A stretch of 64,000 nucleotides of DNA from an uncultured Planctomycetia bacterium (GCA_964373715.1 CAYJVR010000001.1:269888-333887), one strand, 5' to 3'. Positions 11,559-64,000 are shown, counted from the first letter of the stretch. Numbers and translations: made by a program. Notes: generated by a model not told the origin, from the sequence alone.

Positions 11559-12667
11559 GGGACGACCAGTTTTGTGATCTGTTCGGCCGCGTGAGGGAGG
11601 CCGTGTTCCCGGGCTTTCTGCCGCATCTTGAGGAGTATTTCGGGATCGTTCCTGAGTTGTTGGATGATGCGCGGGATTTCGGGGACGCTTTTTGCCCACA
11701 AGGCGGCTCCCAGCTGCGTGATGATTTCGGCGTTGCGCGTTTCCTGTCCCGGGATTGGGGCGACAAGCACAAGAGGCACCCCCTTGACCAGGGCTTCCGT
11801 GCAGGTGAGCCCCCCCGCTTTTGATATGACGAGATCCGAAACCCCCATCAGCTCGTCCATGTTGTTGACAAAACCGTAAATTCGCATCATGTGCTTGACT
11901 GAAGGCCGCAGGGATTCCAGTTTCCGGAAAAGGCTGTCATTTTTTCCGACTACGATGAGCAGCTGCAGTGAATCAGACAGGGCCGCCAAGGAGTTTACGA
12001 GCGAGACAATCGGGCCTGTGCCGGCTCCCCCAGAGCCGATGAGGACTGTGAATTTTTTCTGGTCCAACCCGAGCCGCTGAATCAGTTCAGGCCTGTTTCC
12101 GTCGCTCTGGAATTTCGGGTCCACGGGGATGCCGAGGAGATGAATCTTTTCTGCCGGAACACGGCGCACGATCAGTTCCTCTTTGGCCTGAGGGGAAGCC
12201 ACCACATAGGCGTCAATACCGGGCGTCATCCACAGTGCGTGGGGCATGTAGTCGGTGACAACGGTGATCAGGCGCGCCCGTATCTTGCCCTCGGACTTCA
12301 GCCGGCCGGCCACCTCCATCGGGAAAAAATGGGTTCCGATGACCACGTCCGGATTTGTTTCCATAAGGTACTTTTCAAAATAGTTCCCATGGAGCCGGTT
12401 GCTCATTCGGTGTATCCAGCCGACGATGCCGCTGAAGGTTTTGATGTCGGTCAGGTGGTATGCCAGCCCCCAGAGGAACGGTGCCTGCTGGATCAGGCGC
12501 AGGTATCCTTTCGTGAAACTCCAGCGGTAAAGAGCGTTTGTCCCCATCAGGGCGTCCCAGACGATGATCTCGGCCGAGGAGCGGCGGTCGTGAAACGACG
12601 CGCCGATTGCCTCCGCCGCCCTTTGGTGGCCCGCTCCGGCGGGTACGTGGACGACGAGGATTTTCAT
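11555..12667 (-). CDS. diacylglycerol glycosyltransferase, MGDG-synthase/UgtP-like (GT28 family)
   Basis: N-terminus MKILVVHVPAGAGHQRAAEAI and C-terminal GT28 region (GGAG…GVPLVLVAPIPGQE). Start taken at MKIL. Confidence 0.65.
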   Translation of the reverse strand: MKILVVHVPAGAGHQRAAEAIGASFHDRRSSAEIIVWDALMGTNALYRWSFTKGYLRLIQQAPFLWGLAYHLTDIKTFSGIVGWIHRMSNRLHGNYFEKYLMETNPDVVIGTHFFPMEVAGRLKSEGKIRARLITVVTDYMPHALWMTPGIDAYVVASPQAKEELIVRRVPAEKIHLLGIPVDPKFQSDGNRPELIQRLGLDQKKFTVLIGSGGAGTGPIVSLVNSLAALSDSLQLLIVVGKNDSLFRKLESLRPSVKHMMRIYGFVNNMDELMGVSDLVISKAGGLTCTEALVKGVPLVLVAPIPGQETRNAEIITQLGAALWAKSVPEIPRIIQQLRNDPEILLKMRQKAREHGLPHAAEQITKLVVP

Positions 12668-13272
12668 GGGAGCTCTCTGAGTATCCATCCTGCGGCCGCC
12701 CGGAGGTCCTTGGCGATCCGGTCCGGCTGGACCGACAGGTGTTTCGCACTGGACCGGTTGTGTCTTCCGGAGAGCACGAGGATCTTCCCGCAGCCTGCCG
12801 AACGGGCCATGAGAATGTCCACTTCGGAATCTCCGATGACGTAAGAGCGCTTGAGGTCAATGCCGAACCGTTTTACGGCTTTCCGGATCATGCCGGTACG
12901 GGGCTTCCGGCAGCTGCAGTTCCGGTCGGGATGATGCGTGCAGTAATAGACGGCGTGGATTTTTCCGCCCACGCGGCGTATCGCTGTAAGCATCCGCCGG
13001 CTGACTTCATTCAGCTGCGGCTTCGACATGACCCCCCGCCCCACGCCCGATTGATTGGAAACGATCACCAGTGTCACCTCATGGCGGCTTAATACCCGGA
13101 TTGCCTGAAGAGATCCCGGAACAAACCGGAATTCCTCCCACCGCGTAATGTAACGGTGTTCGGGCGGTTCATTGATGACGCCGTCCCTGTCGAGAAAAAC
13201 GGCCGGTTTTTTATATCTTCTTTTGGTCGTCAAGAATTTCCCAGACTTTGGCCCATTTAAGGAAATGGACAA
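12664..13272 (-). CDS. gmhB: D-glycero-beta-D-manno-heptose 1,7-bisphosphate 7-phosphatase (HAD-IIIA)
   Basis: FLDRDGVIN motif, SNQSGVGRG, CxH…CxC zinc site (CTHHPDRNCSCRKP) and VIGDS. Confidence 0.75.
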   Translation of the reverse strand: MSISLNGPKSGKFLTTKRRYKKPAVFLDRDGVINEPPEHRYITRWEEFRFVPGSLQAIRVLSRHEVTLVIVSNQSGVGRGVMSKPQLNEVSRRMLTAIRRVGGKIHAVYYCTHHPDRNCSCRKPRTGMIRKAVKRFGIDLKRSYVIGDSEVDILMARSAGCGKILVLSGRHNRSSAKHLSVQPDRIAKDLRAAAGWILRELP

Positions 13273-15001
13273 ATGCGTAGAGGCCGGAAAAGATCAGGCC
13301 GGCCATCCCTTCCCGGAAACCTTGTTTTTTAACGTACATCTTCCAGAAAAGCTTGACCGGTTTCGCCGTGGTCTGCCGCCAGATGGTTTCCATGGAGATG
13401 GCCGGATTGCTTTCCACCAGCTGCCGGGCCTCGAGAGAGGTGTACCGGTTTTGGCGCTCGATGAACTCCTCCAGAGATCGGAACGGGTAATGTTCCACCC
13501 CTGCTTGGAGTGTGCCGATGCGTCCTTCAACAAGCAGTTTCTCGTGGACCCTGCCTTCATATCGGGCCTTCCCCCGGTAGAAAAGGTGGAGCGACTGGTG
13601 GTCCCATCCGCCGAAGCGCATCCACCGCCCTAAGAAATTATTTTTTCGGCGGAACTTATAGGCCGCGTACGGTTCCGGCGCGCGAGGGAGTTTTTCGAGT
13701 GTTTTTCGGAACGCGCCGGTGACCACTTCATCCGCGTCGAGTTGGAGGACCCAGTCTCCGTTGGCCGCGGCAGCGCCAGCATTCCGGAGGCGGCCGAAAT
13801 CATCTTTGGTTTCGTCCGTCAGTATCTTGGCGCCGGCTTTTTTGCAGATTTCCACTGTCGCGTCGGTGGAGCCTCCGTCCACAATGACGATTTCATCCAC
13901 CCATCGGACTGATTCGAGGCAGTTCCCGATCGTTTGCGCGGCGTTCTTCGAGAGGATCACCGCGGATATTCGGGATTTTCCTGCTGCGGGTCTGGTCTGG
14001 GTGTAAGGATCACCCAACCACTTCTTCCGGCCGGTTCCCGGCCACTCCTCGGTTGCTGTCTCTTTGTGCGTTGTTGGCGACTGGGGAGACTGCCCCCCTG
14101 CCACCTGCTCTCCAGCGTCACCCGCAGCTTTTCCGCGAGGCGCTCCGTTGGCGACAGGACCCGCTTCGGAAGAGGCGCTATTCTTCGCGTGCCAGTATTT
14201 GGCGAAACTGAGGAACTGGTAAGCCCCGCCGAACACCGAGATCATGTAACCTAAAAAACCCTCTTCCTTCCCCTTTTTCAGCCAGTAGCTCCGGTAAAAC
14301 CTGTCGATTGTCCTCCAGAGGGCTTTGCCGGTCGGCATCTTCCTGCCGTCCATGACCCATTTTTGCGTTTCAAGGGTGGTTTGCCTGTTCAGTTTGCCTA
14401 TGAAGTCGCCGATGTCCCTGTAGGAGTAGTGGATCAGGTCTCCCTGCAGTTTTCCCCACGGCTTGTCCGATATGGCCCTGGGATGGACGGTGGTCTCCTC
14501 CCACCGGAAGACGGCCGGCTTGAACAATTTCACCTGCGGGCTGGGGTACCACCCTCCGCGCTGGATCCAATGTTTCCCGAGGTAGTTCCGGCGGGGGACG
14601 GTGTAGATTTCGTTTGCCGGGTTTCCCGAAAACAAGCCCTTGATCTCCTGTGCTAGTTCGGGCGTGACCCTTTCGTCGGAATCAAGGCTGAAAACCCACT
14701 CATGTTTTGCCTGGGTGTGCGCCCAGTTCCGGTGGCGGCCCTCAATGTCCATTTTCCGTTTTAAGACCCGCGCCCCGAGTGATTCTGCGATTTCCGCCGT
14801 CCGGTCGGCGCTGTCGTCGTCAATTACGAGCAGTTCATCCGCCCATTCGGCCGATTTCAGGCAGTCCGCGATCCGGGCAGCCTCGTTCTTCGCCAGCACG
14901 ACGACGGAGACAGGGAGCTTTTGAGATATCAGGAGAATTCTCCCAGATTTCTCTCGCGGCTGACCGGAACGCGGCGGAGTTGTTGAGCCCACCGGATCCA
15001 C
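13211..15001 (-). CDS. bidomain glycosyltransferase: two GT2 (GT-A) domains in one polypeptide
   Basis: Domain 1 VSVVVLAKNEA…LLVIDDDSADRT; domain 2 ISAVILSKNAA…IVIVDGGSTDAT. They are separated by a Pro/Ala/Gly-rich linker. Confidence 0.7.
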   Translation of the reverse strand: MDPVGSTTPPRSGQPREKSGRILLISQKLPVSVVVLAKNEAARIADCLKSAEWADELLVIDDDSADRTAEIAESLGARVLKRKMDIEGRHRNWAHTQAKHEWVFSLDSDERVTPELAQEIKGLFSGNPANEIYTVPRRNYLGKHWIQRGGWYPSPQVKLFKPAVFRWEETTVHPRAISDKPWGKLQGDLIHYSYRDIGDFIGKLNRQTTLETQKWVMDGRKMPTGKALWRTIDRFYRSYWLKKGKEEGFLGYMISVFGGAYQFLSFAKYWHAKNSASSEAGPVANGAPRGKAAGDAGEQVAGGQSPQSPTTHKETATEEWPGTGRKKWLGDPYTQTRPAAGKSRISAVILSKNAAQTIGNCLESVRWVDEIVIVDGGSTDATVEICKKAGAKILTDETKDDFGRLRNAGAAAANGDWVLQLDADEVVTGAFRKTLEKLPRAPEPYAAYKFRRKNNFLGRWMRFGGWDHQSLHLFYRGKARYEGRVHEKLLVEGRIGTLQAGVEHYPFRSLEEFIERQNRYTSLEARQLVESNPAISMETIWRQTTAKPVKLFWKMYVKKQGFREGMAGLIFSGLYAFVHFLKWAKVWEILDDQKKI

Positions 15002-15996
15002 CGGCTGTCGTTTTCTTCAAGCGGCAGCACGATTTTCTGGAAGCCTTTTTTCTTGGCGAGTATCTTTAAGGAGGCGATCGGATAAAAGGCCTGTTTCGGA
15101 AGAACGGAACGGAAAACGTTGAGATGTTCGGGCACGGCCGGCGCCGATTCTTTCGTGCAGAAGACCCAGACGAGATGGTCCTGGTTGGCCAGGAAACGGA
15201 TCTGCCGGCTCAGCCGGCCGGCATCCTTGAGGGAACCGTTCGCCCCGGCGATCCAGGCGATCCTTTCCTGGGAGGGCATGGCCCATCTTTCGAGGAACCG
15301 TTTTTTGTTCTGCTCGAACAGTTTCTCTTTTTCGGGGTTTTTGTTCATCGTGGCGCTGCCGAGATGGTAAACGTAGCAGCCTTTCGCGATCGCGCAGATG
15401 AAGCCGGCCTGCCGGACGCGCATGGAATAATCCGCGTCTTCGTAATACATGAACTGGAACTTTTCGTCGAGGAGACCTACCTGTTCGATGACCGCTCTGG
15501 GCAGGAGCATGCAGAAAGCGACGCAGTTCCAGTATTCCATCCAGCGGCCCTGCTGATCCTTCAGCCGTCCGGCGGTCTCGTCCGGCCCTTCGTTCCGGCG
15601 CGGCAGTGTGCCGAACTCGTTGCTCATCGGGTTGAGCAGGCCTATCTGGGGATTTGCTTCGGCGACCCGGAGGAGTTCATCGAGCCAGCTTTCGGTGACG
15701 ATGACGTCGTTGTTCATCACGCAGACCCACGGCGCGGTTGTTCTTGAGAGCCCGTCGTTGATTCCTTTTGAGAAACCGTCGTTCCGGGTCCGGCGCACGA
15801 TCTCGAGACGCACATGGTCCGTCCCCTTCAGGCTGTTGAGGTAGCCGACCGCTTCCGGTTCGGTGCTGGCGTTGTCCACGAGGATCAGGCGGCAGGGTTT
15901 CTTTGTGTGGCGGGTGATGCTCTCGACGCATGGCTTTAAAAGATCCGCCCGATTCCATGTGAGAAGAACGATGTCGCAGAGGGGCGAGGGTGTCAT
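14929..15996 (-). CDS. glycosyltransferase family 2 with C-terminal extension
   Basis: CDIVLLTWNRADLL…LILVDNAST…NDG; paralog of the next gene. Start set at the ATGA overlap (15996). Confidence 0.7.
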   Translation of the reverse strand: MTPSPLCDIVLLTWNRADLLKPCVESITRHTKKPCRLILVDNASTEPEAVGYLNSLKGTDHVRLEIVRRTRNDGFSKGINDGLSRTTAPWVCVMNNDVIVTESWLDELLRVAEANPQIGLLNPMSNEFGTLPRRNEGPDETAGRLKDQQGRWMEYWNCVAFCMLLPRAVIEQVGLLDEKFQFMYYEDADYSMRVRQAGFICAIAKGCYVYHLGSATMNKNPEKEKLFEQNKKRFLERWAMPSQERIAWIAGANGSLKDAGRLSRQIRFLANQDHLVWVFCTKESAPAVPEHLNVFRSVLPKQAFYPIASLKILAKKKGFQKIVLPLEENDSRWIRWAQQLRRVPVSRERNLGEFS

Positions 15997-17075
15997 GTGC
16001 GGGCCAGTTCGGAGCAATGGCGGAGGATCTGGTCCCCTGTCGGAGTTTGGAGGACATCGGCGCCGTGAAGCCAGCGGAAACGGCGCAGCCAGTTTGTCCA
16101 TGCCGGGTCGTAGCTGATGGCCAGATGGAAAGGTTTTTTCCTCTTTGTCAGAAGGCGCCAGATTGCTTTTCGGCGCCAGTTTCGCGTGGAGGCCTCAAGC
16201 TGGACGACCTGTGCGTGGGATGCAAGCGGTTCAGAAAGAGCTCCTTCCGGAGCCATCAGGTAGAGCCAGTGTCCCTGCCCGAGCAGTTCCAGAGCGGTTT
16301 GTTGCGGAAAGGGGGAGCCGTTCAGCGCCGGCCCGAAGTAAGACCAGAGTATCCTCAGCCGTTTCCCCCAGATTTTCTCAAAGCGCTGTTTGTTTTGCTC
16401 GAAAGCCCCTTTATGCCCCTCCAAATGGCGGAAAGAGCCTTTCTCTTCATGGAAAACGTAGGAGGCGCAGGCCCTCACGCAGCGTAAGCCGGCCTGGCGC
16501 ACCCGCCGTGAAAGGTCATCATCGTCAAAATAGCCCATGCCGAACTCCTCATTCAGGAGCCCTATTTTATCGAAGAGGGATCGTTTCGCAAGCAGGCAGA
16601 ACCCCAGCGCGACCGTGAGGTTTGTCACCTGGCCCGACCGGTTTTTAAGGCCGGCCGCATATTCTTCAAGAGGGGTCTTCCCCGCTTGAAAGCCGAGCGA
16701 GTTGCTTGTTGGGTTGACCAGCCCGATATTGTCGTTCTGTTGAGCCGCTTTGATCAGCTCAGCCAGCCATCCCGGGCTTAGGATCGTATCGTTGTTCAGC
16801 AGGCAGATCCATTCGGAGTTTGCCGCCCGGATTCCCTGGTTGACCCCTTTGATGAAGCCAAGGTTCTCTTCGTTTCGGATGATCTGGACCGGAAATGAGG
16901 ATGAGGCTTGGAATTCCGCCAGTAAACGGCGTGTGGGCGTCTCGGACCCGTTATCCACCAGGATGAGCCGCACCTGCTCTTTTGTCGAACGAATGATGCT
17001 TTGCAAGCACCGTTCGGTTAGCTCAGGCTGGTTCCAGATCGGGATGATGATGTCGCAGACGGTGGGGGCGTTCAT
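15993..17075 (-). CDS. glycosyltransferase family 2 with C-terminal extension (paralog)
   Basis: CDIIIPIWNQPELT…LILVDNGSE…LLNNDT; start overlaps the upstream stop (ATGA). Confidence 0.7.
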   Translation of the reverse strand: MNAPTVCDIIIPIWNQPELTERCLQSIIRSTKEQVRLILVDNGSETPTRRLLAEFQASSSFPVQIIRNEENLGFIKGVNQGIRAANSEWICLLNNDTILSPGWLAELIKAAQQNDNIGLVNPTSNSLGFQAGKTPLEEYAAGLKNRSGQVTNLTVALGFCLLAKRSLFDKIGLLNEEFGMGYFDDDDLSRRVRQAGLRCVRACASYVFHEEKGSFRHLEGHKGAFEQNKQRFEKIWGKRLRILWSYFGPALNGSPFPQQTALELLGQGHWLYLMAPEGALSEPLASHAQVVQLEASTRNWRRKAIWRLLTKRKKPFHLAISYDPAWTNWLRRFRWLHGADVLQTPTGDQILRHCSELART

Positions 17076-18193
17076 CCTTGCGTCAGGCCGCGGAGCTCCA
17101 TTTCCTGCGCTGCCTTGTCCACCTGGTCTTTAGCGGATACGTTCTGCCCCCATTCCGCGAGTTCCGAGAGGCCCTTCTCGAGTGCGATTGAGGGGGAGAA
17201 GCCGATGGAGCGGATCGCGCTTATGTCGGCAAAGCAGTGCCGTATGTCGCCGGCCCGGTACTTGTTGGGGATGTCCGGCTGTATCGCTTTTCCGTAGAGG
17301 CGGGCAAGCGTTTTCGCGATATCGAGGATGGAGATGGATTTCCCCGATCCGACGTTGAAAGCCCCGTAATCGGCGTTCGGGGTGGTAAGCGCGAGCAGGT
17401 TCGCCCGCACGATATCGGACACGTGGACGAAATCCCTGGACTGCAAGCCGTCCTCGTAGGTCAGTGGGGGATTCCCGTTCTTAATCCGCGCGGAAAAAAT
17501 GGCGCACACGCCGGTGTAAGGATTTGACAGCGCTTGCCTCGGGCCGTACACGTTGAAGTAGCGCAGCGCCACCGTCGGTATCCGGTAAGCCCTTCCGACA
17601 GTCAGGCAGATCTCCTCCTGGTCCCTTTTAGAAACCGCGTAGACCGATGTCGGGTATAGCGGTTTTCCCTCAGGGGTCGGTTCGGCCTGGATTGGTTTCG
17701 AACAGCGAGGGCAGCGCATCTCCCAGTCGTGGCGTTTTAACTGCGCTTCCTCCCGCACCGTCGGAGTGACCGGGCCGCAGACGGAGCAACGGTAAGCGCC
17801 TTCGCCGTAAATGCTCATCGAGCTGGCCACGACGAGTTTCTTTACGGGGAGTTTTTCATTAACGATCACATCGAGCAGGGTCCCTGTGCCTCCAACGTTG
17901 GCTGAAAGATATTTTTCAATCTGGTACATGGATTGTCCGACTCCGACAACCGCTGCTTCATGGAAGACGGCCTCAACATCCCGCAGGGACTTCTTTAATG
18001 TCTCCCTGTCCCGAACATCGCCCCAGATGTATTCCGCACCGGGGTTAAGGTAATCCGGTTTTTTCCCTTCGTGCACCTGCTCTTCAAGGCAGTCCAGCAC
18101 TCGCACCTGGTGGCCGTCCTTCACTAGCGCGTCTGTCAGGTGCGATCCGATGAATCCGGCCCCGCCGGTAACGAGAACTTTCATCTTGGCCAC
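17072..18193 (-). CDS. NAD-dependent epimerase/dehydratase (extended SDR) carrying a Cys4 zinc-ribbon insertion
   Basis: [12 protein letters not shown]ossmann motif, catalytic SSMSIYG and YAVSK. Inserted between them is CSVCGP…(16 aa)…CPRCSKP. Confidence 0.75.
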   Translation of the reverse strand: MAKMKVLVTGGAGFIGSHLTDALVKDGHQVRVLDCLEEQVHEGKKPDYLNPGAEYIWGDVRDRETLKKSLRDVEAVFHEAAVVGVGQSMYQIEKYLSANVGGTGTLLDVIVNEKLPVKKLVVASSMSIYGEGAYRCSVCGPVTPTVREEAQLKRHDWEMRCPRCSKPIQAEPTPEGKPLYPTSVYAVSKRDQEEICLTVGRAYRIPTVALRYFNVYGPRQALSNPYTGVCAIFSARIKNGNPPLTYEDGLQSRDFVHVSDIVRANLLALTTPNADYGAFNVGSGKSISILDIAKTLARLYGKAIQPDIPNKYRAGDIRHCFADISAIRSIGFSPSIALEKGLSELAEWGQNVSAKDQVDKAAQEMELRGLTQG

Positions 18194-18205
18194 GGGTTTA
18201 TCCTC

Positions 18206-27776: not shown

Positions 27777-27853
27777 GTTTTTGCCCCTGGTGTCCGCCTC
27801 TAGTAAAAAATATTCGCGTAACAGAATTTCCAGAGGTTATCTTAGCACGGTTT
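27777..27853 (-). promoter_or_regulatory. 77-bp AT-rich intergenic region, candidate internal promoter
   Basis: One of only three non-coding gaps over 70 bp in the glycan locus; contains runs of A/T (tagtaaaaaatattcgcg). Confidence 0.25.
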
Positions 27854-56006: not shown

Positions 56007-56650
56007 TAGTTTCTCACCGGGTAACCGCCCCTGCGATTCAGGAACGCTTTTGCTTTAATGGGGCTGATGTCGCGAAAATGGAATATAGATGCAGCGGCAG
56101 CGCCGGTAGCCAATCCCTGGCTAAATGCGAGCGCGAGATCTTCTAATTTACCTGCTCCGCCCGAGATGATTACCGGGATCTTCACTGCTTTGCAGATTGA
56201 TTGGGCAAGCTCAAGATCATACCCTTCCATGGTTCCGTCTCTATCTATCGAAGTGAGTAAGATTTCTCCGGCCCCTAACGCCTCAATCTTTTTCGCCCAA
56301 TCCAAAGGGTTCATTCCGGTCCCGTTGCTGCCGCTATGAGTCATGACTTCATATGAATTGCCATTCTTTTTTGCATCAATTGAAACCACAATGCACTGGC
56401 TGCCAAAGATCTTGGCCGCTTCTCTTATAAACTCCGGATTTTGAACCGCAGCGGTGTTAACAACAACCTTGTCAGCGCCAACAAGTAAAAGCTTTCGAAT
56501 ATCTTCGACGGTCCGAATGCCTCCGCCAACAGTCAGCGGCATAAAAACCCGCCCAGAAATTTCAGAAACGGCATTTGCTAATTGGTCAATGCCGCGCTCT
56601 TCTGTGGTTGCGCGAAAATCAAGAAAGACGAGTTCATCTGCTAGCTGGGC
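55380..56650. other. local GC dip (about 45-50% against about 60% in flanks), covering the standalone hisH and the HisF-domain half of the hisHF fusion
   Basis: 60-nt windows inside this patch count 35-50% GC, for example 55561-55620 about 35% and 56461-56520 about 42%. Flanking windows at 54721-54780 and 56881-57000 count about 60%. Confidence 0.55.
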
Positions 56651-57451
56651 GTCGTAGACCATCGGGGCCTTGACCGGGTGGCCGACGTCATGGCGGATGC
56701 CGTTTTCCTGGATCTGGAACCGGACCGTCTTCGTGAGCCGCCCTTTGTTGTACAAGAGGGTCGGGATCAGCCGGATGTTTGGCGTCTTTTTCTCGTTGGT
56801 TTTAAGGGTCCCCAAGGGTTCGGTTTCTTCAGTTGTTGGATCCCAGGTAAGAAAATTCTTTAACAGGCCGAGGCCGGCTTCCTGGCTCTTCTCCGGGTGG
56901 AACTGGACCCCGGCGATGTTCTCCTTGACGATCGCCGAGTGGAACGTTTCCCCGTATGCGGTGGTGGCGGCGACAGCCGCCAGGTTATCGGACACGACAT
57001 GGTAGCCGTGCACGAAATAGAAATAAGGGACCCGCTTCAATCCTTTAAAGAGGAAACTGGGCCGGGCCGGGACCGCTTCGTCCCACCCAATGTGGAGCGT
57101 TTTCAGAGAGCCGTTTCTTTTGAAAGGTTTAACGCCGGCGGACACCCATCCGAGGCCCGGATGCCGCCCCTGTTCCAAGCTCTCTTTCGCGAGCAACTGC
57201 ATGCCGAGGCAGATGCCGAGAAACGGGGTTTTCCTGACCCGCACTGTTTTTGTCAGCGGCCCGATCAGCCCAAGTTTGTCCAGGTTCTGCATCCCCTGGC
57301 CGAACGCGCCGACCCCCGGCAGAACGATCTTTTCCGCGTTCTCTATGTCGGCCGGACGGCTGGTCACCTGGACTTCGGCGTTCAGCGTTTCGAACGCCCG
57401 GGCGACCGAACTCAAGTTCCCCATCCCGTAGTCGATAATGGTAACCTTCAT
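56006..57451 (-). CDS. fused HisH-HisF homolog (glutamine amidotransferase domain + cyclase domain in one polypeptide)
   Basis: The N-terminal domain [16 protein letters not shown]…GICLGMQ…QFHPEKS and the C-terminal domain [18 protein letters not shown]…GGGI…GADKVVVNT…[10 protein letters not shown]…ISGGAG are joined by the linker [22 protein letters not shown]. Start set at MKVTI (ATGA overlap). Confidence 0.8.
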
Positions 57452-58647
57452 TCTTTCGCTCCCGGAGAGACCCATTTCTCCTGGTCCCAGAGGGGCGCCC
57501 CTTTTTCCACGTGGCGTAGGTCCGGTTTGTGGGGGTAGACCGCGTGCTCAAGCGCGATCTTATTGAACTCCTCTTCGGTCATGCCGACCAGCTTCAGGAA
57601 GACGTCGAGCGAGGCGGGCCGCTTGCCGTCGAATTCCGCCATCAGTTTCTCCCCCTGCTCGCGGGTCATCCGGCTGTTCCGGATATCAATGCTGGCCAAA
57701 TGGTTCGTCCGGCCCATCCCCCGCTTGATGAAGCGCAGGTAGTCCCGCACCCCCTGCAGATAGCATTCGATCTTTTCGTAGCCGTAGCCATCCGGGACCC
57801 CTTCGACCGCTTCCTCTTTCCAGCCCAGCTCCCGCTTGATCACCTCGACTTGGGCCTTGACGTCCCACGGAATGTAGGTCCCCAGGCAGATTGACCGGTA
57901 GCCGAGTTTTTTCAGCTCCTCCTTGGGCGGGTACCGGAACGGCTCCAGGTCCCGCTCGTCGATCCCTTGCCCGAGCATGCCGGCCATGTCCTCCGCGGTG
58001 ATCCCGAGGTTGATGTAACGGTTGAACCGCTTCTCGTCCACGAGTTCCTGCTCGTCCTGGCGGAAGTAGGCGTTGTACTCGGTATTCGGCTCCCCCCAGA
58101 TCACCAAAGGCACCTGGAACCGGATCGCCATCTGCATCGGGAAGGAGAAGATGCCGGTGTGGCAGTGCCAGCAGAAGTCTCCCTTCCTCTTGAGGCTTTC
58201 CACCATGAGCCGGCGCACCACCTTCCAGCCGGCCCGGAACTTGAGGAAGTCAACGCCGAGCGCCCGGATCGTCCGCTCGGTGTTCTCGATCACGGTCGGG
58301 CGCAGGAACCCGTGGTCGAAGCAGACCACCAGCGGTTTGAGCCTGAACTGTTTCACGAGCGTGTAGGCGGTGTAGGTGCTGTCCTTGCCTCCGGAGAACG
58401 GAATGATGCAGTCGTAGGCATACTTGCCGCGGTAGCTGTCGAGCAATCCTTCAAACTCACGCTTTTTGGCGGCCCAGTCGATCACCTGCTGTTTGTGCTC
58501 GATGTTCCGGCAGACGTTGCAGACCCCTTCGGCGTCGAACACGATCGTGTCGTGCGTTTCGGCGAGCAGGCAGCGGACACAGCGCCTCAGTTTCGAGGCG
58601 CTCTCCTGCAATGAGGAGCTTTCTTTATCGAGCGACGGGTTCGGCAT
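57448..58647 (-). CDS. N-acetyl sugar amidotransferase (WbpG/PseA family), second copy
   Basis: CVRCLL…CNVC zinc ribbon and PP-loop IPFSGGKDS; paralog of the 53304..54626 gene. Confidence 0.75.
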   Translation of the reverse strand: MPNPSLDKESSSLQESASKLRRCVRCLLAETHDTIVFDAEGVCNVCRNIEHKQQVIDWAAKKREFEGLLDSYRGKYAYDCIIPFSGGKDSTYTAYTLVKQFRLKPLVVCFDHGFLRPTVIENTERTIRALGVDFLKFRAGWKVVRRLMVESLKRKGDFCWHCHTGIFSFPMQMAIRFQVPLVIWGEPNTEYNAYFRQDEQELVDEKRFNRYINLGITAEDMAGMLGQGIDERDLEPFRYPPKEELKKLGYRSICLGTYIPWDVKAQVEVIKRELGWKEEAVEGVPDGYGYEKIECYLQGVRDYLRFIKRGMGRTNHLASIDIRNSRMTREQGEKLMAEFDGKRPASLDVFLKLVGMTEEEFNKIALEHAVYPHKPDLRHVEKGAPLWDQEKWVSPGAKE

Positions 58648-59734
58648 GCACCTTTTTCTCCGATCGGCTGACGACCATATCCCATGAGAGGGGCGTCCCC
58701 TTAGCGATGTCCCGCGCCGCCTTCTTTCCCAGGACCACCGGCAGTTCCTTCGGCGGAAGCCCGTGCGCGGGCCGGATCGAGCGGACGTTCCGCTCCGTGA
58801 AGATTTCCCCCTCTTTGATGTCGGCCACCACGAAGAGAGAGCGCCGGAACACCCTGTTCTTTTCCTCTTCCGGTGTTGCTTTGTAGTCGGGTGAGCCGAT
58901 CGCCTGCTCCACCATACGGATACCCTTCACCATCGCGGCGAACTCCTGCGGCTCGAGAGAGAAACCGGCGTCTGGCCCACCCTTCGCGCGGGAGAGGATC
59001 AGATGTTTCTCCACGATGCAGGCTCCGAGTGCCACTGCGGCCAGCGCCACCTCGGTTCCGAGCGTGTGGTCCGAAAGCCCGGCCGGCGCATGGAATGTTT
59101 TGGCCAGGTGCGCGATCGTCAAAAGATTCATGTCGGATGGTGTCGCCGGGTAGCCGCTGGTGCATTTCAAGAGCGCGATCTGTTTCGCGCCCGATTCCCG
59201 AGCCGTTTTCACCGCCTCGGCAATTTCACGGAGATTGGCCAGGCCGGTGGATAGGATCATCGGTTTCCCGGTTTTGGCAATCCGCTGAATGAGCGGGATA
59301 TCCACGATCTCAAACGAGGAAACCTTGTAGGCCGGCACCCCCATTTTCTCGAGGAAATCGACCGCGGTCGGGTCGAACGGTGAGCAAAAAAGATCGATCC
59401 CGGCCTCTGCGGCGACCTTTTTCAGCTTCGGCTGCCATTCCCACGGGGTGTGCGCTTCCTTATAGAGGTCGTGGAGCGTCCGGCCGGCCCAGGGGCTCCC
59501 CTTGCCGATCTTGAACTCCGGCCTGTCCGAATCGAGCGTGATCGTGTCCGGCGTGTAGGTCTGCAGTTTCGCCGCGTCGGCCCCCGCCTTTTTCGCGGCC
59601 CGGATCAGCTCCGCCGCCTGCTCGAAAGAGCCGCCGTGGTTGCAGGAGATCTCCGCCACCAGGTAAGCCGGGTGCCCCGCGCCGATCTTCCTGCCGTTGA
59701 TTTCGATAAAAGTTTTTTGTTCCCGCATCGTCAC
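58625..59734 (-). CDS. NeuB-family nonulosonic acid synthase (PseI/LegI/NeuB-like) with C-terminal SAF domain
   Basis: EISCNHGGS, metal-binding GLSDHTLG and VEKHLIL, and a C-terminal SAF/antifreeze-like domain (…GEIFTERNVRSIRPAHGLP). Confidence 0.8.
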   Translation of the reverse strand: MTMREQKTFIEINGRKIGAGHPAYLVAEISCNHGGSFEQAAELIRAAKKAGADAAKLQTYTPDTITLDSDRPEFKIGKGSPWAGRTLHDLYKEAHTPWEWQPKLKKVAAEAGIDLFCSPFDPTAVDFLEKMGVPAYKVSSFEIVDIPLIQRIAKTGKPMILSTGLANLREIAEAVKTARESGAKQIALLKCTSGYPATPSDMNLLTIAHLAKTFHAPAGLSDHTLGTEVALAAVALGACIVEKHLILSRAKGGPDAGFSLEPQEFAAMVKGIRMVEQAIGSPDYKATPEEEKNRVFRRSLFVVADIKEGEIFTERNVRSIRPAHGLPPKELPVVLGKKAARDIAKGTPLSWDMVVSRSEKKVHAEPVAR

Positions 59735-61089
59735 ATTTTCCTGAAAACGGGTTGAATGACAGGCCCTTCGAGCGACTGAAGCAGTTTCCCCTCTTTGAGG
59801 ATCTGCGACAGCAGTTCCAGCACGCTTCGGTAGACCATCAGCACTGATTCCACAGCCGTCTCGTCATGGGCGGCGCAGAGGTTGTGGGCCCCCGTGAACA
59901 GATAGCCACGCTTGATGCATTCCTGCTGGACGAAGGTCTTCATCGCCATTGCCTCCGGGTCCGGGTGGAATCCGATCCCGGTCCTCGGCGGCAGACCGGA
60001 GCACTCGGTCCTTTCTTTCAGGCAGTAGGCTTCGGCCAGCAGGTTGTACCCTTCTTTGATCTGCCGGCCCCGCGCCCAGATCCCTTCCAAGGTGCCCGGT
60101 TCCTCCATCGCCTGAATTGTGGCCAGCGCCGCCGCGATCGATGCGGTCTCACCTGCGAAGGTGAACGAGAAAAATATTTCGTCGAACAGCGCCATTACGT
60201 CGCGCCGGCCGACGATCGCCGAGACCGGCATCCCGTTGGCCATCCCCTTGCCGAAGCAGGCCAGGTCCGGTGTTACCCCGAAATGTCCCTGCGCGCCGCC
60301 TAAGCCCAGCCGGAAGCCGGTCACCATCTCATCGAAGACGAGCAGGGCCCCGTTCTTTTGGGCCAGCTCCTTCACCCCTTCGAGGAAGCCCTGTTTCGGC
60401 TCCGCGAGCCCGACCGGCTCCATGATCACCGCGGCGATTTTCCCCGGGTGCTGTTCAAACAGAGACTTCAAAGACTCAAGGTCGTTATAGCGGAATGTCT
60501 TTGTCAGCTCGGCAACCGCTTTCGGGACCCCCTTGTTCCGGGTGGTCGTGCCGACGTACCAGTCCTGCCAGCCGTGGTAGCCGCAGCAGGCGATCAGATC
60601 GCGGCCAGTGAAGGCGCGTGCCGCCCGGACCGCGGCTGACGTCACGTCGGAACCGTTCTTGCCGAACCGGACCATCTTGGCGCAGGGGATCAGCCGGGTC
60701 AGTATTTCGGAAAGCTCCACCTCGAGCGGGTGGCTGAGCGTGAAGACAGTTCCCTGTTTTGCCTGCGCCGCCACCGCTTGAGCGACGCGCGCGTCTCCGT
60801 AGCCGAGCATGAGCGCTCCCAGCGCCATCGAGAAATCGAGGTATTTGTTGCCGTCGATATCCCAGACAAAACAGCCGGAGCCCCGCTCCAGATAGACTGG
60901 CGCAACCCCCTGCACGAACTGGGAGGGGCCTTTGCTGAAGGTCTGCGAGCAGGCGGGGATTACCTTCTCGGCTCGTTTCTTCAACTGGCGGGATTTTTCC
61001 AGCGTCCGAGCGCGTGCCGCCAGTGCCGGCTTCTCGATCAGCGATTGGCAGAGTTCCTGGATTGACGTTGTTTCAGCTGTTTTTGGCAT
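59731..61089 (-). CDS. class III PLP aminotransferase, glutamate-1-semialdehyde 2,1-aminomutase (HemL)-like
   Basis: FDEMVTGFRLGLGGAQGHFGVTPDLACFGKGMANGMPVSA hallmark of the GSA-AM family, here inside a sugar-biosynthesis cassette. Confidence 0.8.
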   Translation of the reverse strand: MPKTAETTSIQELCQSLIEKPALAARARTLEKSRQLKKRAEKVIPACSQTFSKGPSQFVQGVAPVYLERGSGCFVWDIDGNKYLDFSMALGALMLGYGDARVAQAVAAQAKQGTVFTLSHPLEVELSEILTRLIPCAKMVRFGKNGSDVTSAAVRAARAFTGRDLIACCGYHGWQDWYVGTTTRNKGVPKAVAELTKTFRYNDLESLKSLFEQHPGKIAAVIMEPVGLAEPKQGFLEGVKELAQKNGALLVFDEMVTGFRLGLGGAQGHFGVTPDLACFGKGMANGMPVSAIVGRRDVMALFDEIFFSFTFAGETASIAAALATIQAMEEPGTLEGIWARGRQIKEGYNLLAEAYCLKERTECSGLPPRTGIGFHPDPEAMAMKTFVQQECIKRGYLFTGAHNLCAAHDETAVESVLMVYRSVLELLSQILKEGKLLQSLEGPVIQPVFRKM

Positions 61090-61687
61090 GGTTCGCAGAC
61101 CTGGACTTCAGATAGTCCGATTTCAGAATACCCATCACCGTTTTGTCCCGGAATGCCCCGTCCCGGAACAGCTGTTCCTTGAGGGTCCCTTCCACTGTGA
61201 AGCCGAGTTTTTTGTACGACCGGACAGCTCCCTCATGGTCGGCGTAAACGCCGAGTGTGATCTTATGCAGGTTCAGCCTCTTGAAGCCGTACTCCAGCAG
61301 CAGCTCCATCGCCTCGGAGCCGTACCCCTTCCCCCAGACCCTTTTGTCCCCCACCATGATCCCGATGTCGGCGTTCCGGTGCAGAGGGTGGATGTTCCCC
61401 AGCTTCACGTTGCCGACGTGGCGGTTGGCCTTCTTCTCGATAATCGCCAGCATGACGTTGTTCGGGTGCTTGGCGATGTTCTCCAGGTAGTTGCGCAGAG
61501 TGGCGGTTGTGGTCGGGAAAGAGCCGGTTTCCAGGAACCGGGTCACCTCGTAATTATTGAGCCAGTCAAAGTAGGGCCCGTCCAGGTCGGTCATCTCCAT
61601 CGGACGCAGGTAGATCCTGGCGCCGGTGAGAAATGGGTGGCGGAGTTCCCCCTCTTTCTTCTGTTGCCGAATGGCTGTTTTTGTCAC
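61073..61687 (-). CDS. GNAT-family N-acetyltransferase (RimL-like)
   Basis: GARIYLRPMEMTDL…HVGNVKLG…VWGKGYGSEAM acetyl-CoA binding motif. Confidence 0.75.
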   Translation of the reverse strand: MTKTAIRQQKKEGELRHPFLTGARIYLRPMEMTDLDGPYFDWLNNYEVTRFLETGSFPTTTATLRNYLENIAKHPNNVMLAIIEKKANRHVGNVKLGNIHPLHRNADIGIMVGDKRVWGKGYGSEAMELLLEYGFKRLNLHKITLGVYADHEGAVRSYKKLGFTVEGTLKEQLFRDGAFRDKTVMGILKSDYLKSRSANHAKNS

Positions 61688-61697
61688 GGTTTTTCCC

Positions 61698-62708
61698 CTA
61701 TTCCGGCCGGGTGGTCTGTACCGTTTCCCGGAAAGTCCCTTTTTCCCTCGCGGAGAGGGCCAGCTCCAGCGTGCGGCATCCTGTTTCGAGGTCAGCGGCC
61801 GGTTTTTCCCTGTTCGCGATGCAGTCGAGGAGATGGTTCATTTCCAGCAGGTACATCATGTTGCCGTCGTAAGATTTCTTGTCGAGCAGGGTTTCCCAGC
61901 TTTTCCGGGAGGCGTCGTAGCGCCGCACCAGGATTTTTTCGGGAGATTTCCCCTCGCTTTCCCAAACAAGCGTGCCGCGCGTGCCGATGATTTCGCAGCC
62001 CCTGAGCTTCACCTGGTTCAGGTAATCGGCCTCGATAACGCCGACAGCGCCCGAATCGAATTTGAGGACCATCAGAGCGGTGTCTTCCGTCTCGATTTCC
62101 AGGTTGCTCACCTTGTCCGCGAAGGCGTCGGCCACGGCCGCCTCCCCTCCGATCCAGCGGAGATAATCAATCTCGTGGAGACATTCCAGGATGATTCCCC
62201 CGCCTTGATTCGCCCTGGCGCTGTAGGTCGCCCGGTAATCGGTGCCCGGTCTCCAGTTTGGAAGGTAGTGGCTGAACCGGGATTTGAAGAAAAGAGGTTT
62301 CCCTATCTCTCCGGCGGCCAGCGACCGCTGCAGCGTTTCGACACCGGGATGAAACCTCATGTTGCAGCCGGTCAGCACCGCCTGCCCTTTGACCTCAGCG
62401 ACGATTCGCCAGGCTTCCTCCAGAGAGTCGGCCACCGGTTTCTCGATAAAAAGAGCGCATCCGGCCTTCAGGCATTCGATGGCCGGGTCGGCATGCTCGT
62501 GCGTCGGCGTGCAGATCAGAGCCGCGTCCGGTTTTTCCCGGAGAGCCTCTGTGAGCGAAGAGAAGCTCCGGACGCCGTGTGTTTTTGCTGTTTCTTCGAC
62601 CCGGGCCGGGTCGGTGTCAAAAACAATCACTTCCCCCGCTTTAAGCGTTAACAGGTTGGCGATGTGCCGTTTGCCGATTGAGCCGCAGCCGACAACGAGA
62701 AATTTCAT
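61698..62708 (-). CDS. Gfo/Idh/MocA-family NAD(P)-dependent sugar oxidoreductase
   Basis: MKFLVVGCGSIGKRH Rossmann N-terminus and EKP motif (ALFIEKPVA). Confidence 0.8.
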   Translation of the reverse strand: MKFLVVGCGSIGKRHIANLLTLKAGEVIVFDTDPARVEETAKTHGVRSFSSLTEALREKPDAALICTPTHEHADPAIECLKAGCALFIEKPVADSLEEAWRIVAEVKGQAVLTGCNMRFHPGVETLQRSLAAGEIGKPLFFKSRFSHYLPNWRPGTDYRATYSARANQGGGIILECLHEIDYLRWIGGEAAVADAFADKVSNLEIETEDTALMVLKFDSGAVGVIEADYLNQVKLRGCEIIGTRGTLVWESEGKSPEKILVRRYDASRKSWETLLDKKSYDGNMMYLLEMNHLLDCIANREKPAADLETGCRTLELALSAREKGTFRETVQTTRPE

Positions 62709-63415
62709 CTCTTGACCTCCTCCGGCGAACGCTCCAGAGCTTCCATCAGAGCTTCCGCGATCACCAAGTGCCCAGGTTCGTCAATGTCCACCGACCTCTC
62801 GCGCGGGATCTTCCAGCCGATTGTTTTATCGCTGAAAAGCCGTTTCTCCCGCCGGAGTGCATCCAGCTTCATAAAATAGAAATAGCCGGAGTCCACCCAG
62901 ACGGGGGGGAGTTTCTGCGAGGCCACCAGGTACTGTTCTCCGAAGAAAAGCTTCAGGAAGCCGTTTTCCTCCTGCAGCGCCCAGAACGGGGGCTCCAGGA
63001 AAGTGGTGATTGCCTGGCAGATCTCCGCGTTCCGTTCCTTTATCAGCGCGTAGCCGCCGCGCAGATCCTCCGGCCGCATCAACACCGCGGTCGGCAGGAT
63101 CAGGCAGAGAGTGTCCACCGGTTTTCCCTGTTCCTCCAGCCAGCCGGCGAAGTTGAGGCAGACGTCGGCAAGCCGGGCGGTATCGCCGGCCAGTTCCGGG
63201 GACCGCTCATGCACCCGGGCGCCGAACCGGGCGGCTGTTTCGGAGATCTCCTTGTCATCGGTGGAGACCCAGATTTCCGGAAAGAGCCCGCTAGCGGCCG
63301 CCGCTTCGATGGTCCAGCCGATCACCGGCTTCCCCTTCAAGGAGGCGATGTTCTTTCGGGGGAACCTCTTCGACCCGCCGCGCGCCGGTATCAAACACGC
63401 CAAATTCTCAGACAT
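62705..63415 (-). CDS. CMP-nonulosonic acid synthetase (acylneuraminate cytidylyltransferase, NeuA/PseF/LegF family)
   Basis: LIPARGGSKRFPRKN N-terminal signature. Confidence 0.8.
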   Translation of the reverse strand: MSENLACLIPARGGSKRFPRKNIASLKGKPVIGWTIEAAAASGLFPEIWVSTDDKEISETAARFGARVHERSPELAGDTARLADVCLNFAGWLEEQGKPVDTLCLILPTAVLMRPEDLRGGYALIKERNAEICQAITTFLEPPFWALQEENGFLKLFFGEQYLVASQKLPPVWVDSGYFYFMKLDALRREKRLFSDKTIGWKIPRERSVDIDEPGHLVIAEALMEALERSPEEVKR

Positions 63416-64000
63416 GGTCCCAGGTGATCCCCTCGTTTTCGGCGATCTCCTTGAGCGCCGGTTTGCCCAGGAAATAGCCGAGGTACTCCGGCGATATCCC
63501 GTTCTCCGGGCGCATCCCGATGAGGTGCTCTTCGGTCAGAACCGTCCCCTTTTTGATCGGGGTCCGGGCCGCCAGGTGCCGGAACCACTTCTTCCTCTCG
63601 GCCTGGTCGGCCTGGCTTGGGATCAGGTCGGGAACGCCGACGCCGTCCTGCACCTGCCGTAAAACCTTCACATGCTCGGCGAACTCTTTCGGTTCGAGCG
63701 ACAGCACGTGATGGTGGCCCGGCAGAGTCCGGCTCATCGTGAGCCTCTTCTCCAGCACCGAGGAGCCGAGCGTCACCGCCATGATGTCCGGCGCCGGGTC
63801 CCGGTCGCGCGACGAATAGCCGGCCACCGTTTGGAATGTTTCCTTCAGGTAGGGGATCGTTGCCATGTTCAGCTCGCCGTAGGTGTCGGCGTGGCAGCAG
63901 TGGACAAGGACCGACTGGTCGTTGCCCTGCTCGATCATCAGTTCGATCACCTTGGCCGCGTCCGTTACATCCACCGGCCCGGTGTCTATCAGCATCGGCT
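63408..64000 (-). CDS. second NeuB-family paralog (C-terminal part only; gene continues past window end), with both conserved metal-binding His replaced
   Basis: It aligns to the first NeuB-like protein: GYSSRDRDPAPDIMAVTLGSSVLEKRLTMSR against GLSDHTLGTEVALAAVALGACIVEKHLILSR. The SAF-like C-terminus is retained (TPIKKGTVLTEEHLIGMRPENGISP). Confidence 0.5.
   Translation of the reverse strand, partial: PMLIDTGPVDVTDAAKVIELMIEQGNDQSVLVHCCHADTYGELNMATIPYLKETFQTVAGYSSRDRDPAPDIMAVTLGSSVLEKRLTMSRTLPGHHHVLSLEPKEFAEHVKVLRQVQDGVGVPDLIPSQADQAERKKWFRHLAARTPIKKGTVLTEEHLIGMRPENGISPEYLGYFLGKPALKEIAENEGITWDHV

Follow-up and report, generated by a model that had tools for sequence, protein, structure and literature searches.

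Does a run of envelope-glycan genes that fills 51 kb of one strand encode a single surface glycan, or several products that merely lie side by side? The question is posed by the interval 12664-64000 of a 64,000-nucleotide stretch of DNA from an uncultured Planctomycetia bacterium (GCA_964373715.1 CAYJVR010000001.1:269888-333887), hereafter the window, which holds 57 genes. An earlier note, made from the sequence alone, had described the interval as a dense single-strand envelope-glycan locus, and so it is, with 45 minus-strand genes and 99.1% of its length coding. The reading that we favour, and to which we give slightly better than even prospects, is that the region is the main envelope-glycan supercluster and would provide a lipopolysaccharide (LPS) core together with a nonulosonic-acid-capped O-unit, assembled by a Wzx-dependent route.

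Results

Initiation, translocation and transfer

Genes were mapped from six-frame open reading frames (ORFs), Pfam scans of every minus-strand ORF and independent calls on identical metagenome contigs, and were assigned by comparing Pfam and NCBIfam models with their curated cut-offs. Gene content, gene order, conservation and composition are thereby observed directly. GmhB, two GT9 domains, Wzy_C, Glycos_transf_4, two copies of WbuX and PseI score above cut-off. Because there is only a single initiating transferase, a single MOP-superfamily flippase and a single Wzy_C protein in 51 kb, the gene content fits one lipid-linked pathway. The three predicted proteins are:

23690-24949 (-): Wzy_C-family membrane protein (WaaL-type ligase, O-oligosaccharyltransferase or polymerase) with about ten transmembrane (TM) helices; Wzy_C 84.8 bits, cut-off 31.7
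24946-26757 (-): initiating polyprenyl-phosphate N-acetylhexosamine-1-phosphate transferase (WecA/MraY) fused to four TM helices and CoA_binding_3; Glycos_transf_4 122 bits, cut-off 27; CoA_binding_3 46 bits
46791-48272 (-): divergent Wzx-type flippase (MOP superfamily) with 12 TM helices; fold and remote relatives

In the initiating transferase, which is 75% identical over 602 aa in the related contig L005, the WecA model covers residues 21-303 and the N-terminal half of EPS_sugtrans covers residues 365-591. The C-terminal module matches WbaP/WcaJ-type transferases in their N-terminal, non-catalytic half only, and this fusion is kept in three relatives at 65-75% identity.

The flippase was overlooked by the earlier note. 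An 871-aa ORF at 45331-47946 spans two genes. It overlaps a 524-aa ORF at 45.3-48.4 kb, and the GC content at third codon positions (GC3) switches phase at ~46800, dividing the stretch into a 487-aa Capsule_synth protein and a 493-aa membrane protein. Independent gene calls make the same division, so that a frameshifted or giant KpsC is ruled out as an artefact. The 493-aa protein has no sequence match in Pfam, NCBIfam or the PDB. However, its AF2 model (pLDDT 72.6, pTM 0.73) retrieves MurJ (TM-score 0.66-0.73) and WzxE as the best Foldseek matches within a whole range of 0.59-0.73, and an exhaustive profile search gathers 1534 relatives; of the remote relatives sampled, 30 of 33 carry Pfam Polysacc_synt. 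From this predicted fold and these relatives, 46791-48272 is identified as a probable divergent Wzx.

Nonulosonic acids and acetamidino groups

The amidotransferases and the nonulosonic acid cassette that the earlier note had reported were found again, in the form of an AsnB-type enzyme, two WbuX sets and PseI. The two sets and the cassette follow one another up to the window end (L013 is a related contig, L008 one that continues the window):

53304-54626 (-): WbuX-type N-acetyl sugar amidotransferase, set 1; TIGR03573, 358.6 bits, cut-off 203; 84% identical in L013
54623-55375 (-): HisF-like, WbuZ-type subunit, set 1; WbuZ is the best match, 238 bits, below 299.7
55335-56006 (-): HisH-like glutaminase subunit, set 1; TIGR01855, 215 bits; GC3 0.496, z = -3.4
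56006-57451 (-): fused HisH-HisF (WbuY-WbuZ-like), set 2; HisH and WbuZ models
57448-58647 (-): WbuX-type amidotransferase, set 2, 38% identical to set 1; TIGR03573, 352.3 bits, cut-off 203
58625-59728 (-): PseI, pseudaminic acid synthase (NeuB family); TIGR03586, 480 bits, cut-off 340
59731-61089 (-): class-III (GSA-aminomutase-like) aminotransferase; domain models
61073-61687 (-): GNAT N-acetyltransferase, weakly PseH-like; PseH 57 bits, cut-off 93
61698-62708 (-): GFO/IDH/MocA oxidoreductase; domain models
62705-63415 (-): PseF-like CMP-nonulosonate cytidylyltransferase; TIGR03584, 182.7 bits, below 205.7
63408-64000 (-): second NeuB-family synthase, cut by the window end; 347 aa at full length on L008

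Both WbuX copies adjoin their own HisH-like and HisF-like partners. The HisH model scores 215 and 210 bits against a cut-off of 105 and does not separate WbuY from true HisH, whereas WbuZ is the best match for both HisF-like proteins at 238 and 277 bits, below 299.7. The HisH-HisF fusion lies beside the separate hisH/hisF pair, whose products are 45-48% identical to the fusion halves, and it is also present in L013 and in a further contig, L023. For PseF, PseC and PseH, the models are best or near-best matches, each below its cut-off. In 40-45 of 80 metagenome loci the class-III aminotransferase again has NeuB, GFO and DegT genes as neighbours, and the cassette of DegT, GNAT, GFO, aminotransferase and NeuB is widespread in environmental contigs.

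The earlier note placed the end of the locus at the window end, which in fact cuts it: glycan genes go on for at least 10 kb further on L008. There, L008 contains the second NeuB at full length as well as a carbamoyltransferase, an RmlD-like reductase, a PseG-like protein (a weak Glyco_tran_28_C match, 22.9 bits), a helix-turn-helix (HTH) regulator and a PseB-like dehydratase (Polysacc_synt_2, 303 bits); PseB and PseG are not in the window itself. Two GT-C-like genes also lie on L008, one with PMT_2 and one weakly PMT-like (17 bits, below cut-off). On the locus strand at L008 3600-4660 (~68.8-69.8 kb), a cupin/WxcM-like ORF and a glycosyltransferase (GT) of family 2 (GT2) split by a frameshift were noted, the latter a pseudogene or an assembly error; the HTH_24 regulator follows, with a 94-bp upstream gap that contains TTGACA. 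A 218-aa ORF on the opposite strand, ~5.7 kb beyond the window end, was rejected as spurious, as its GC content is higher at first than at third codon positions, its product is Arg-rich, and the cupin-like ORF and the split GT2 occupy that stretch on the locus strand.

The candidates for attachment of the nonulosonic acids are two adjacent genes that the earlier note had called KpsS/KpsC-like:

43881-45344 (-): Capsule_synth protein (KpsC/KpsS superfamily); Pfam PF05159, 47 bits; PDB KpsC, E = 5e-8
45331-46794 (-): second Capsule_synth protein, 32% identical to the first; Pfam, GC3 phase

The label is right as to the domain (Capsule_synth, GT107; PF05159 47 and 49 bits, cut-off 20), but each protein has a single, C-terminal match in ~487 aa, unlike the two-domain architecture of KpsC, and no ABC2_membrane, ABC_tran or Poly_export domain of a KpsMTED-type exporter was found in 12664-64000. 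The first has 77 homologues, mostly from uncultured bacteria, and the second reaches 26 bits with the BFO_1060-family model (cut-off 200). Homologues of BFO_1060 in other strains of Tannerella forsythia, Tanf_01245 and TFUB4_00887, are required, as deletions have shown, for decorating the protein O-glycan with the pseudaminic or legionaminic acid (Pse/Leg) derivative (PMC5420450). Since two NeuB genes are present and one of the pair weakly matches the BFO_1060 family, the two proteins are more plausibly CMP-nonulosonic-acid transferases than Kps capsule proteins. The two genes overlap by 14 bp in the window, whereas in three related contigs a radical SAM/SPASM gene on the opposite strand lies between them (L013 8895-9974, L015 8887-9918, L016 8841-9872).

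A predicted pathway

In the scheme that we favour, each functional step of which is predicted from homology, short-chain dehydrogenases/reductases (SDRs), a DegT aminotransferase, the AsnB-type amidotransferase and the pseudaminic-acid cassette would supply activated sugars. The cassette would comprise PseI, the second NeuB, the PseF-like, GNAT and GFO proteins and the class-III aminotransferase, together with the PseB-like and PseG-like proteins just beyond the window. The two WbuX/HisH/HisF sets would turn N-acetyl into acetamidino groups, and methyltransferases, a PhyH dioxygenase and the carbamoyltransferase beyond the window would decorate the sugars further. The WecA-type protein 24946-26757 would initiate the chain on polyprenyl phosphate, ten cytoplasmic GT2 and GT4 enzymes would lengthen it and the two KpsC-like transferases would attach ulosonic acids. 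The lipid-linked glycan would then be flipped by the divergent Wzx (46791-48272), trimmed or extended in the periplasm by GT-C enzymes that use polyprenyl-phosphate sugars from a PgfS/ArnC-like GT2, and moved to its acceptor by the Wzy_C protein (23690-24949). The flanking GT9 genes and GmhB suggest that this acceptor is a heptosylated lipid A-core.

The number of transferases in the interval is 19 (seven GT2, three GT4, two GT9, four PMT_2-type GT-C, two Capsule_synth and one WecA-type), so the figure of at least 12 in the earlier note falls short of this count of glycosyl and phosphoglycosyl transferases. Of its six methyltransferases five are clear and the sixth is a weak candidate. Three SDRs, AsnB and the PhyH dioxygenase complete the list of other enzymes.

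The acceptor: lipid A-core or protein

The genes around the initiating transferase and the Wzy_C protein are the following:

12664-13233 (-): GmhB, D-glycero-beta-D-manno-heptose 1,7-bisphosphate 7-phosphatase (HAD-IIIA); NF006506, 180.3 bits, a marginal pass at cut-off 178
13211-15001 (-): protein with two tandem GT2 domains; Pfam Glycos_transf_2, 128 bits; 65% identical in L005
14929-15996 (-): GT2; Pfam; 59% identical in L005
15993-17075 (-): GT2, paralogue of 14929-15996 (37% identity); Pfam
17072-18193 (-): SDR sugar-nucleotide epimerase/dehydratase; Pfam Epimerase 184 bits; GalE and LegB are the best NCBIfam models, below cut-off
18206-19042 (-): GT2-like, weak domain match; Pfam 36.9 bits; 82% identical in L005
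19080-20066 (-): PgfS/ArnC-like polyprenyl-phosphate GT2 with two C-terminal TM helices; PgfS 193 and ArnC 121 bits, full-length, below cut-off
20067-21632 (-): GT-C (PMT_2/ArnT-like) with at least seven TM helices; Pfam PMT_2 39.8 bits
21646-22713 (-): GT9 (heptosyltransferase family); Pfam Glyco_transf_9 80 bits; heptosyltransferase II 107 bits, cut-off 134.6
22710-23633 (-): second GT9; Pfam 85 bits; heptosyltransferase II 91 bits, cut-off 134.6
26790-27776 (-): SDR, 4,6-dehydratase/decarboxylase-like; domain models; 88% identical in L005
27854-29056 (-): GT4 (Glycos_transf_1); Pfam
29043-31172 (-): 709-aa membrane protein, weakly PMT_2 (GT-C)-like, eight TM helices; PMT_2 20.3 bits, below cut-off; 47% identical in L005
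31179-33143 (-): AsnB-type glutamine amidotransferase; Asn_synthase 318 bits; 70% identical in L005
33152-34111 (-): SDR, GDP-L-fucose-synthase-like; NCBIfam 282 bits, below 500
34114-36000 (-): GT4 with C-terminal DUF218 (ElyC/SanA-like); DUF218 105 bits, Glyco_trans_1_4 53 bits

The earlier note spoke of two GT9 heptosyltransferases. Both genes pass the GT9 domain model (Pfam cut-off 22), but all scores with the heptosyltransferase I, II and III equivalogs lie below cut-off. Its Arn-like module amounts to a pair of a polyprenyl-phosphate GT2 and a GT-C enzyme: ArnC (121 bits, cut-off 529), ArnT (30, 567), ArnA (130, 777) and ArnB (223, 631) all score far below cut-off, and neither an ArnD-type deformylase nor an Arn-associated formyltransferase appears in the domain scans of 12664-64000. 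The sole formyltransferase of the window (7287-8243) adjoins def and is taken as fmt. Thus, the mechanistic analogy to Arn, a polyprenyl-phosphate sugar GT2 acting with a GT-C enzyme, holds, whereas membership does not. For the AsnB-type protein, we infer a role in uronic acid amidation. The fusion of GT4 and DUF218 is kept in all relatives examined (L005/L013, L006, L007 and L015).

The Wzy_C protein could also serve a general protein O-glycosylation system, either as a PglL/TfpM-like O-oligosaccharyltransferase or alongside PMT_2 GT-C enzymes that glycosylate proteins directly. The products would be surface proteins, pili or an S-layer bearing a glycan capped with acetamidino-pseudaminic acid, as in Tannerella forsythia or on Campylobacter flagellin. 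The Wzy_C domain is common to WaaL and O-oligosaccharyltransferases; the best NCBIfam matches of the protein are IctB-like and an exosortase-associated 'putative O-glycosylation ligase' (52 bits), TfpM reaches 21 bits, and a PDB sequence search gave no match. Such a system is consistent with the weak BFO_1060-family match of one Capsule_synth gene, with the four PMT_2 GT-C genes of the window and the two further GT-C-like genes beyond it, and with the GT2 at 19080-20066, which is nearest to PgfS of the Streptococcus mutans protein-glycosylation system. That no Wzy, Wzz or ABC exporter was found points the same way. However, all the model scores that speak for it are weak and below cut-off, and the Wzy_C gene is directly flanked by the initiating transferase on one side and the GT9 pair on the other, in a conserved block that also includes GmhB, which is a typical core/WaaL setting. 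We regard protein glycosylation as an unlikely main function, and the hedge of the earlier note between LPS and a glycoprotein was a fair one.

A conserved frame with a variable centre

Among the matches listed, the named homologues of PriA belong to Candidatus Omnitrophica/Omnitrophota, except for 'Candidatus Makaraimicrobium thalassicum' (P0347), and the Wzy_C ligase-family gene recovers three loci from metagenome-assembled genomes, two of Omnitrophota and one labelled Planctomycetia. On the PriA and locus homologues, the window is thus from an uncultured Omnitrophota bacterium. Identical proteins were found only in metagenome assemblies and one NCBI contig.

In the closest relative, JAMWCF010000001.1, positions 306463-358732 (52 kb; L013, L005 and L101) are colinear with the window from the HisH-HisF fusion to SBP_bac_5, housekeeping flank included, at 43-88% amino-acid identity. 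The earlier note had held that its case would fail if the halves occurred apart in relatives; in this genome they are together. JAMWCF010000001.1 lacks orthologues of 48319-51225 (PhyH, a 406-aa protein and one methyltransferase) and part of 38302-43778, and has the opposite-strand radical-SAM/SPASM gene between its Capsule_synth genes. L015 and L016 keep the order WbuX, two methyltransferases, the protein of no assigned family, PhyH, Wzx, two Capsule_synth, GT4 and GT4/DUF218, and then diverge. L006 and L007 keep the block of initiating transferase, ligase, GT9, GT-C and GT2 with small rearrangements, and L023 joins the nonulosonic-acid cassette to both WbuX sets. Among the more distant contigs, the glycan genes upstream of gmhB are different ones in L102 and missing from L103. 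The locus is therefore a conserved frame (~13-36 and 52-64+ kb) with a variable centre (~37-52 kb). The genes of the centre and its edges, apart from the Capsule_synth pair and Wzx, are the following; "SAM" denotes S-adenosylmethionine.

35997-37103 (-): GT2; domain models; 60% identical in L013
37061-38305 (-): GT-C (PMT_2); Pfam, TM helices, independent gene call
38302-38931 (-): SAM methyltransferase; Pfam
38931-39686 (-): SAM methyltransferase; Pfam, independent gene call
39686-40528 (-): GT2 with weak similarity to polyprenyl-phosphate hexose transferases; domain models
40521-41678 (-): DegT/PseC/LegC-family sugar aminotransferase; Pfam 398 bits; LegC 334 (cut-off 420) and PseC 265 (423), below cut-off
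41728-43065 (-): GT-C (PMT_2), paralogue of 37061-38305 (35% identity); Pfam; GC3 0.592, z = -1.9
43008-43778 (-): SAM methyltransferase, compositional outlier; Pfam; GC3 0.537, z = -2.8
48319-49206 (-): PhyH-family Fe(II)/2-oxoglutarate dioxygenase; Pfam 31.8 bits, cut-off 22
49203-50423 (-): 406-aa soluble protein; no family at E <= 0.001; Methyltransf_23 E = 0.077
50416-51225 (-): SAM methyltransferase; Pfam
51222-52406 (-): GT4; domain models
52396-53304 (-): SAM methyltransferase; Pfam

The 406-aa protein has an orthologue in L015 and L016, with a weak Methyltransf_23 match in L015, and none in L013, and a PDB search returned no match; it is possibly a divergent methyltransferase. A PDB sequence search with a GT-C gene gave nothing usable.

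Composition agrees with the division into frame and centre. Against a window mean GC3 of 0.72, low-GC3 outliers lie at 41728-43778 and 55335-56006, a pattern that suggests recent replacement or acquisition of these genes. From ~49 kb onward GC3 is higher and the GC skew of the coding strand is reversed. The cumulative GC skew changes sign at ~48000-49500; below this point the coding strand is C-rich in most genes, above it G-rich, and this boundary coincides with the start of the block of amidotransferases and nonulosonic-acid genes. The change may stem from what the genes encode, from a different origin or from their level of expression.

These differences bear on a second alternative, in which there is no single system: independent pathways for lipid A/core, a nonulosonic-acid O-antigen or capsule and a glycolipid would lie side by side because the lineage strings most of its genes on one strand and gathers glycan genes in one variable region. 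Composition shifts along the locus, the different glycan genes of L102 and their absence from L103 all speak for such an arrangement, as does the cassette of DegT, GNAT, GFO, aminotransferase and NeuB, which stands alone in dozens of unrelated metagenome contigs. Overlapping same-strand packing moreover crosses housekeeping genes and is seen in non-syntenic Omnitrophota DNA (below), and complete Omnitrophota genomes are reported to hold hypervariable polysaccharide cassettes, with a 25-kb strain-variable example and variable LPS/capsule glycosyltransferase genes (bioRxiv 10.64898/2026.06.07.730766). On the other hand, the 19 transferases are served by only a single initiating transferase, a single flippase and a single ligase-family gene. 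Moreover, at least three genomes preserve the macro-order at 43-88% identity, as would be expected if selection acts on the whole set. We consider this arrangement improbable as well.

Several observations nevertheless weigh against the favoured reading of one LPS-directed, Wzx-dependent pathway. No lipid A, 3-deoxy-D-manno-oct-2-ulosonic acid (Kdo) or Lpt genes were found in the 64 kb and ~17 kb of flanks, so that LPS itself is assumed; both GT9 proteins fall below the heptosyltransferase equivalog cut-offs, and the Wzy_C domain alone does not separate WaaL, PglL and Wzy types. Neither a Wzy polymerase nor Wzz nor an ABC exporter could be recognised (a single Wzy_C protein is present, the domain scans of all 57 genes show no Wzz, and polymerase and Wzz genes could lie elsewhere in the genome), leaving a polymeric or long O-antigen unsupported. 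Finally, the cluster is a mosaic, as its centre differs between relatives, and its composition is heterogeneous in both of the ways described above.

A further possibility, distinctly improbable in our estimate, is that the supercluster of at least 60 kb makes a lineage-specific Omnitrophota glycoconjugate rather than a classical O-antigen. This may be one heavily tailored oligosaccharide that carries a pair of nonulosonic acids modified in different ways (doubly acetamidino, N-methylated or carbamoylated); as many as six GT-C enzymes would complete it in the periplasm, and proteins or pili would bear it. The fusions of WecA with the WbaP N-terminal half and of GT4 with DUF218 may then be non-canonical parts for initiation and control.

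Strand, packing and flanking genes

The earlier note took the single direction of the genes as a sign of one product. Within 12664-64000, neighbouring genes overlap at 29 of 44 junctions, in 12 cases by 4 bp of the ATGA/GTGA type, and ORFs, Pfam and independent calls agree on the tiling of the 45 genes. However, the run does not start at gmhB as the note had it: the minus strand carries every one of the 57 window genes, housekeeping flank included, and the run continues on both sides. The genes that precede the interval are:

94-11558 (-): housekeeping block of SBP_bac_5, secG, tpiA, pgk, gap, two GalT/HIT-like genes, fmt, def, priA and UDG; Pfam; context, outside the glycan pathway
11555-12667 (-): MGDG_synth/GT28-type glycolipid glycosyltransferase; Pfam MGDG_synth 98.6 bits; 4-bp overlap with gmhB

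The second of these reaches 199 bits with the NCBIfam model for diglucosyl-DAG synthase, below the cut-off of 500. Junctions between gmhB, the MGDG-synthase gene, UDG and priA are as tight as those of the locus interior, with overlaps of 4 bp and 14 bp, and the same packing runs through UDG, priA, def, fmt, gap, pgk, tpiA, secG and an ABC transporter. On contig L001 the run goes on below position 1 through this ABC transporter operon, and with L008 it extends over at least ~80 kb and at least ~75 genes. The string UDG-priA-def-fmt(-galT-galT-gap) is kept in Omnitrophota contigs L101-L103 at PriA identities of 50-68%, whereas GmhB (HAD) and the MGDG-synthase-like gene are joined to it only in the closer relatives (PriA 63-68%; L101 and L102). 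The tandem GalT/HIT-family (DUF4921/DUF4931-like) paralogues at 5197-7279 (-) are 47.5% identical and remain next to fmt and gap even in relatives whose PriA is as little as 50% identical.

In non-syntenic stretches of L102 (PriA 63%) and L103 (PriA 50%), 37 of 38 called genes (~97%) are co-oriented, and these genes are functionally unrelated (DNA ligase, integrase, cytochromes, pyruvate kinase and a two-component system). Because the packing crosses housekeeping genes and relatives show co-orientation in non-syntenic DNA, strandedness is uninformative on function: the one-strand layout is a lineage-wide co-orientation of genes, not special to this locus and not evidence of a single operon.

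As the earlier note had stated, there is no opposite-strand gene and no mobile element, on the agreement of six-frame ORFs, Pfam, independent calls and a repeat search. The three longest plus-strand ORFs (40362-41570, 45343-46425 and 60932-61990) have no Pfam match and, like every long plus-strand ORF, sit within a minus-strand gene with domain matches; they were rejected as shadow ORFs. Pfam scans of the minus-strand ORFs of the window contain no transposase or integrase domain, and searches for tRNAs, Rfam families, riboswitches, inverted repeats and IS-like repeats found none. The sole repeat is 83 nt common to the two GalT-like paralogues (5446-5528 and 6521-6603, 75% identity).

Only two gaps in the interval exceed 70 bp, one fewer than the earlier note had counted, the next being 56, 49 and 46 bp:

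27777-27853: 77-bp non-coding gap; gene-junction count
43779-43880: 102-bp gap, the longest of the locus, bordering the variable centre; gene-junction count

Strong internal terminators, which the note had said would speak against it, were not found in consensus scans. Terminator-like sites numbered 38 in the scan of 10-30 kb, where shuffles gave 25.5 +/- 5.2, and were about as expected in the remaining two; neither these nor promoter-like sites show clear enrichment relative to shuffled sequence, and no strong terminator lies within an intergenic gap, by E. coli-type consensus that may not fit this phylum. A sigma-70-like hexamer pair, GTGAAA-16-TATAGT at 43884..43857 (-), lies mostly within the 102-bp gap, its first hexamer beginning 4 nt inside the adjoining gene; this is a consensus match only.

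Discussion

The locus is an unusually large case of a familiar type, the nonulosonic-acid glycan loci of Legionella, Campylobacter and Tannerella, and its interest is descriptive rather than conceptual. In the flagellin island of Campylobacter jejuni, pseA, hisH, hisF and pseI are adjacent and give acetamidino-pseudaminic acid, which Maf-type proteins put on flagellin. In the window, WbuX/PseA-type, HisH-like, HisF-like and PseI genes are likewise adjacent, but there are no flagellin or Maf genes; GT9, Wzy_C, WecA-type and Wzx genes are found instead. The rfb (LPS) locus of Leptospira has tens of genes, almost all on one strand. It differs from the window in phylum and gene set, being rhamnose-rich and Wzy-dependent, and we know of no HisH/HisF acetamidino sets in it.

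The Legionella O-antigen cluster is ~30 kb long and makes a homopolymer. Similar to the window, it has WecA, a synthase and a cytidylyltransferase for nonulosonic acid, GNAT, PseG, a class-III aminotransferase and HisH/HisF paralogues. A Capsule_synth protein of Legionella (P0075) is a distant homologue of the window gene. The window is larger, at least 61 kb, with two WbuX sets, two NeuB, four to six GT-C and many more GT2 and GT4 enzymes. In L. pneumophila non-Sg1 clusters (Sg6/Sg12 type), WecA, GNAT, PseG, a GSA-aminomutase-like aminotransferase, a cytidylyltransferase and HisF/HisH are described, with an acetamidino nonulosonic-acid polymer as the product (PMC3694923). The acetamidino group is N-methylated in Sg1 (PMC13306086). 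Whereas the Legionella cluster carries an O-antigen ABC transporter (PMC3694923), the window has Wzx and no recognisable ABC exporter. The O-glycosylation locus of Tannerella forsythia shares with the window a Pse/Leg cassette, a nonulosonic-acid transferase, Wzx, methyltransferases and amidated or carbamoylated sugars (PMC5420450), but it is without GT9 or GmhB and its targets are S-layer proteins.

Within Omnitrophota, the centre of the window (~37-52 kb) is variable like the strain-variable cassettes cited above, for which that work gives no gene-by-gene account. The main phylum-wide study (Nature Microbiology) makes no mention of LPS, O-antigen, glycosyltransferases or pseudaminic acid. 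For genome scanning in this lineage, long same-strand runs are the norm and should not be taken for operons or functional units.

Omnitrophota are uncultured and mostly ultra-small, and their cell surface is essentially undescribed. The map of a conserved supercluster of more than 60 kb gives targets, namely a divergent Wzx, two candidate nonulosonic-acid transferases and two acetamidino systems, for chemical work on glycans, for typing strains in metagenomes in the manner of serotypes and for tests of cell-host contact. A non-classical glycan, if that is the product, may be relevant to the lifestyle dependent on attachment (host-associated or predatory) that has been proposed for these nanobacteria.

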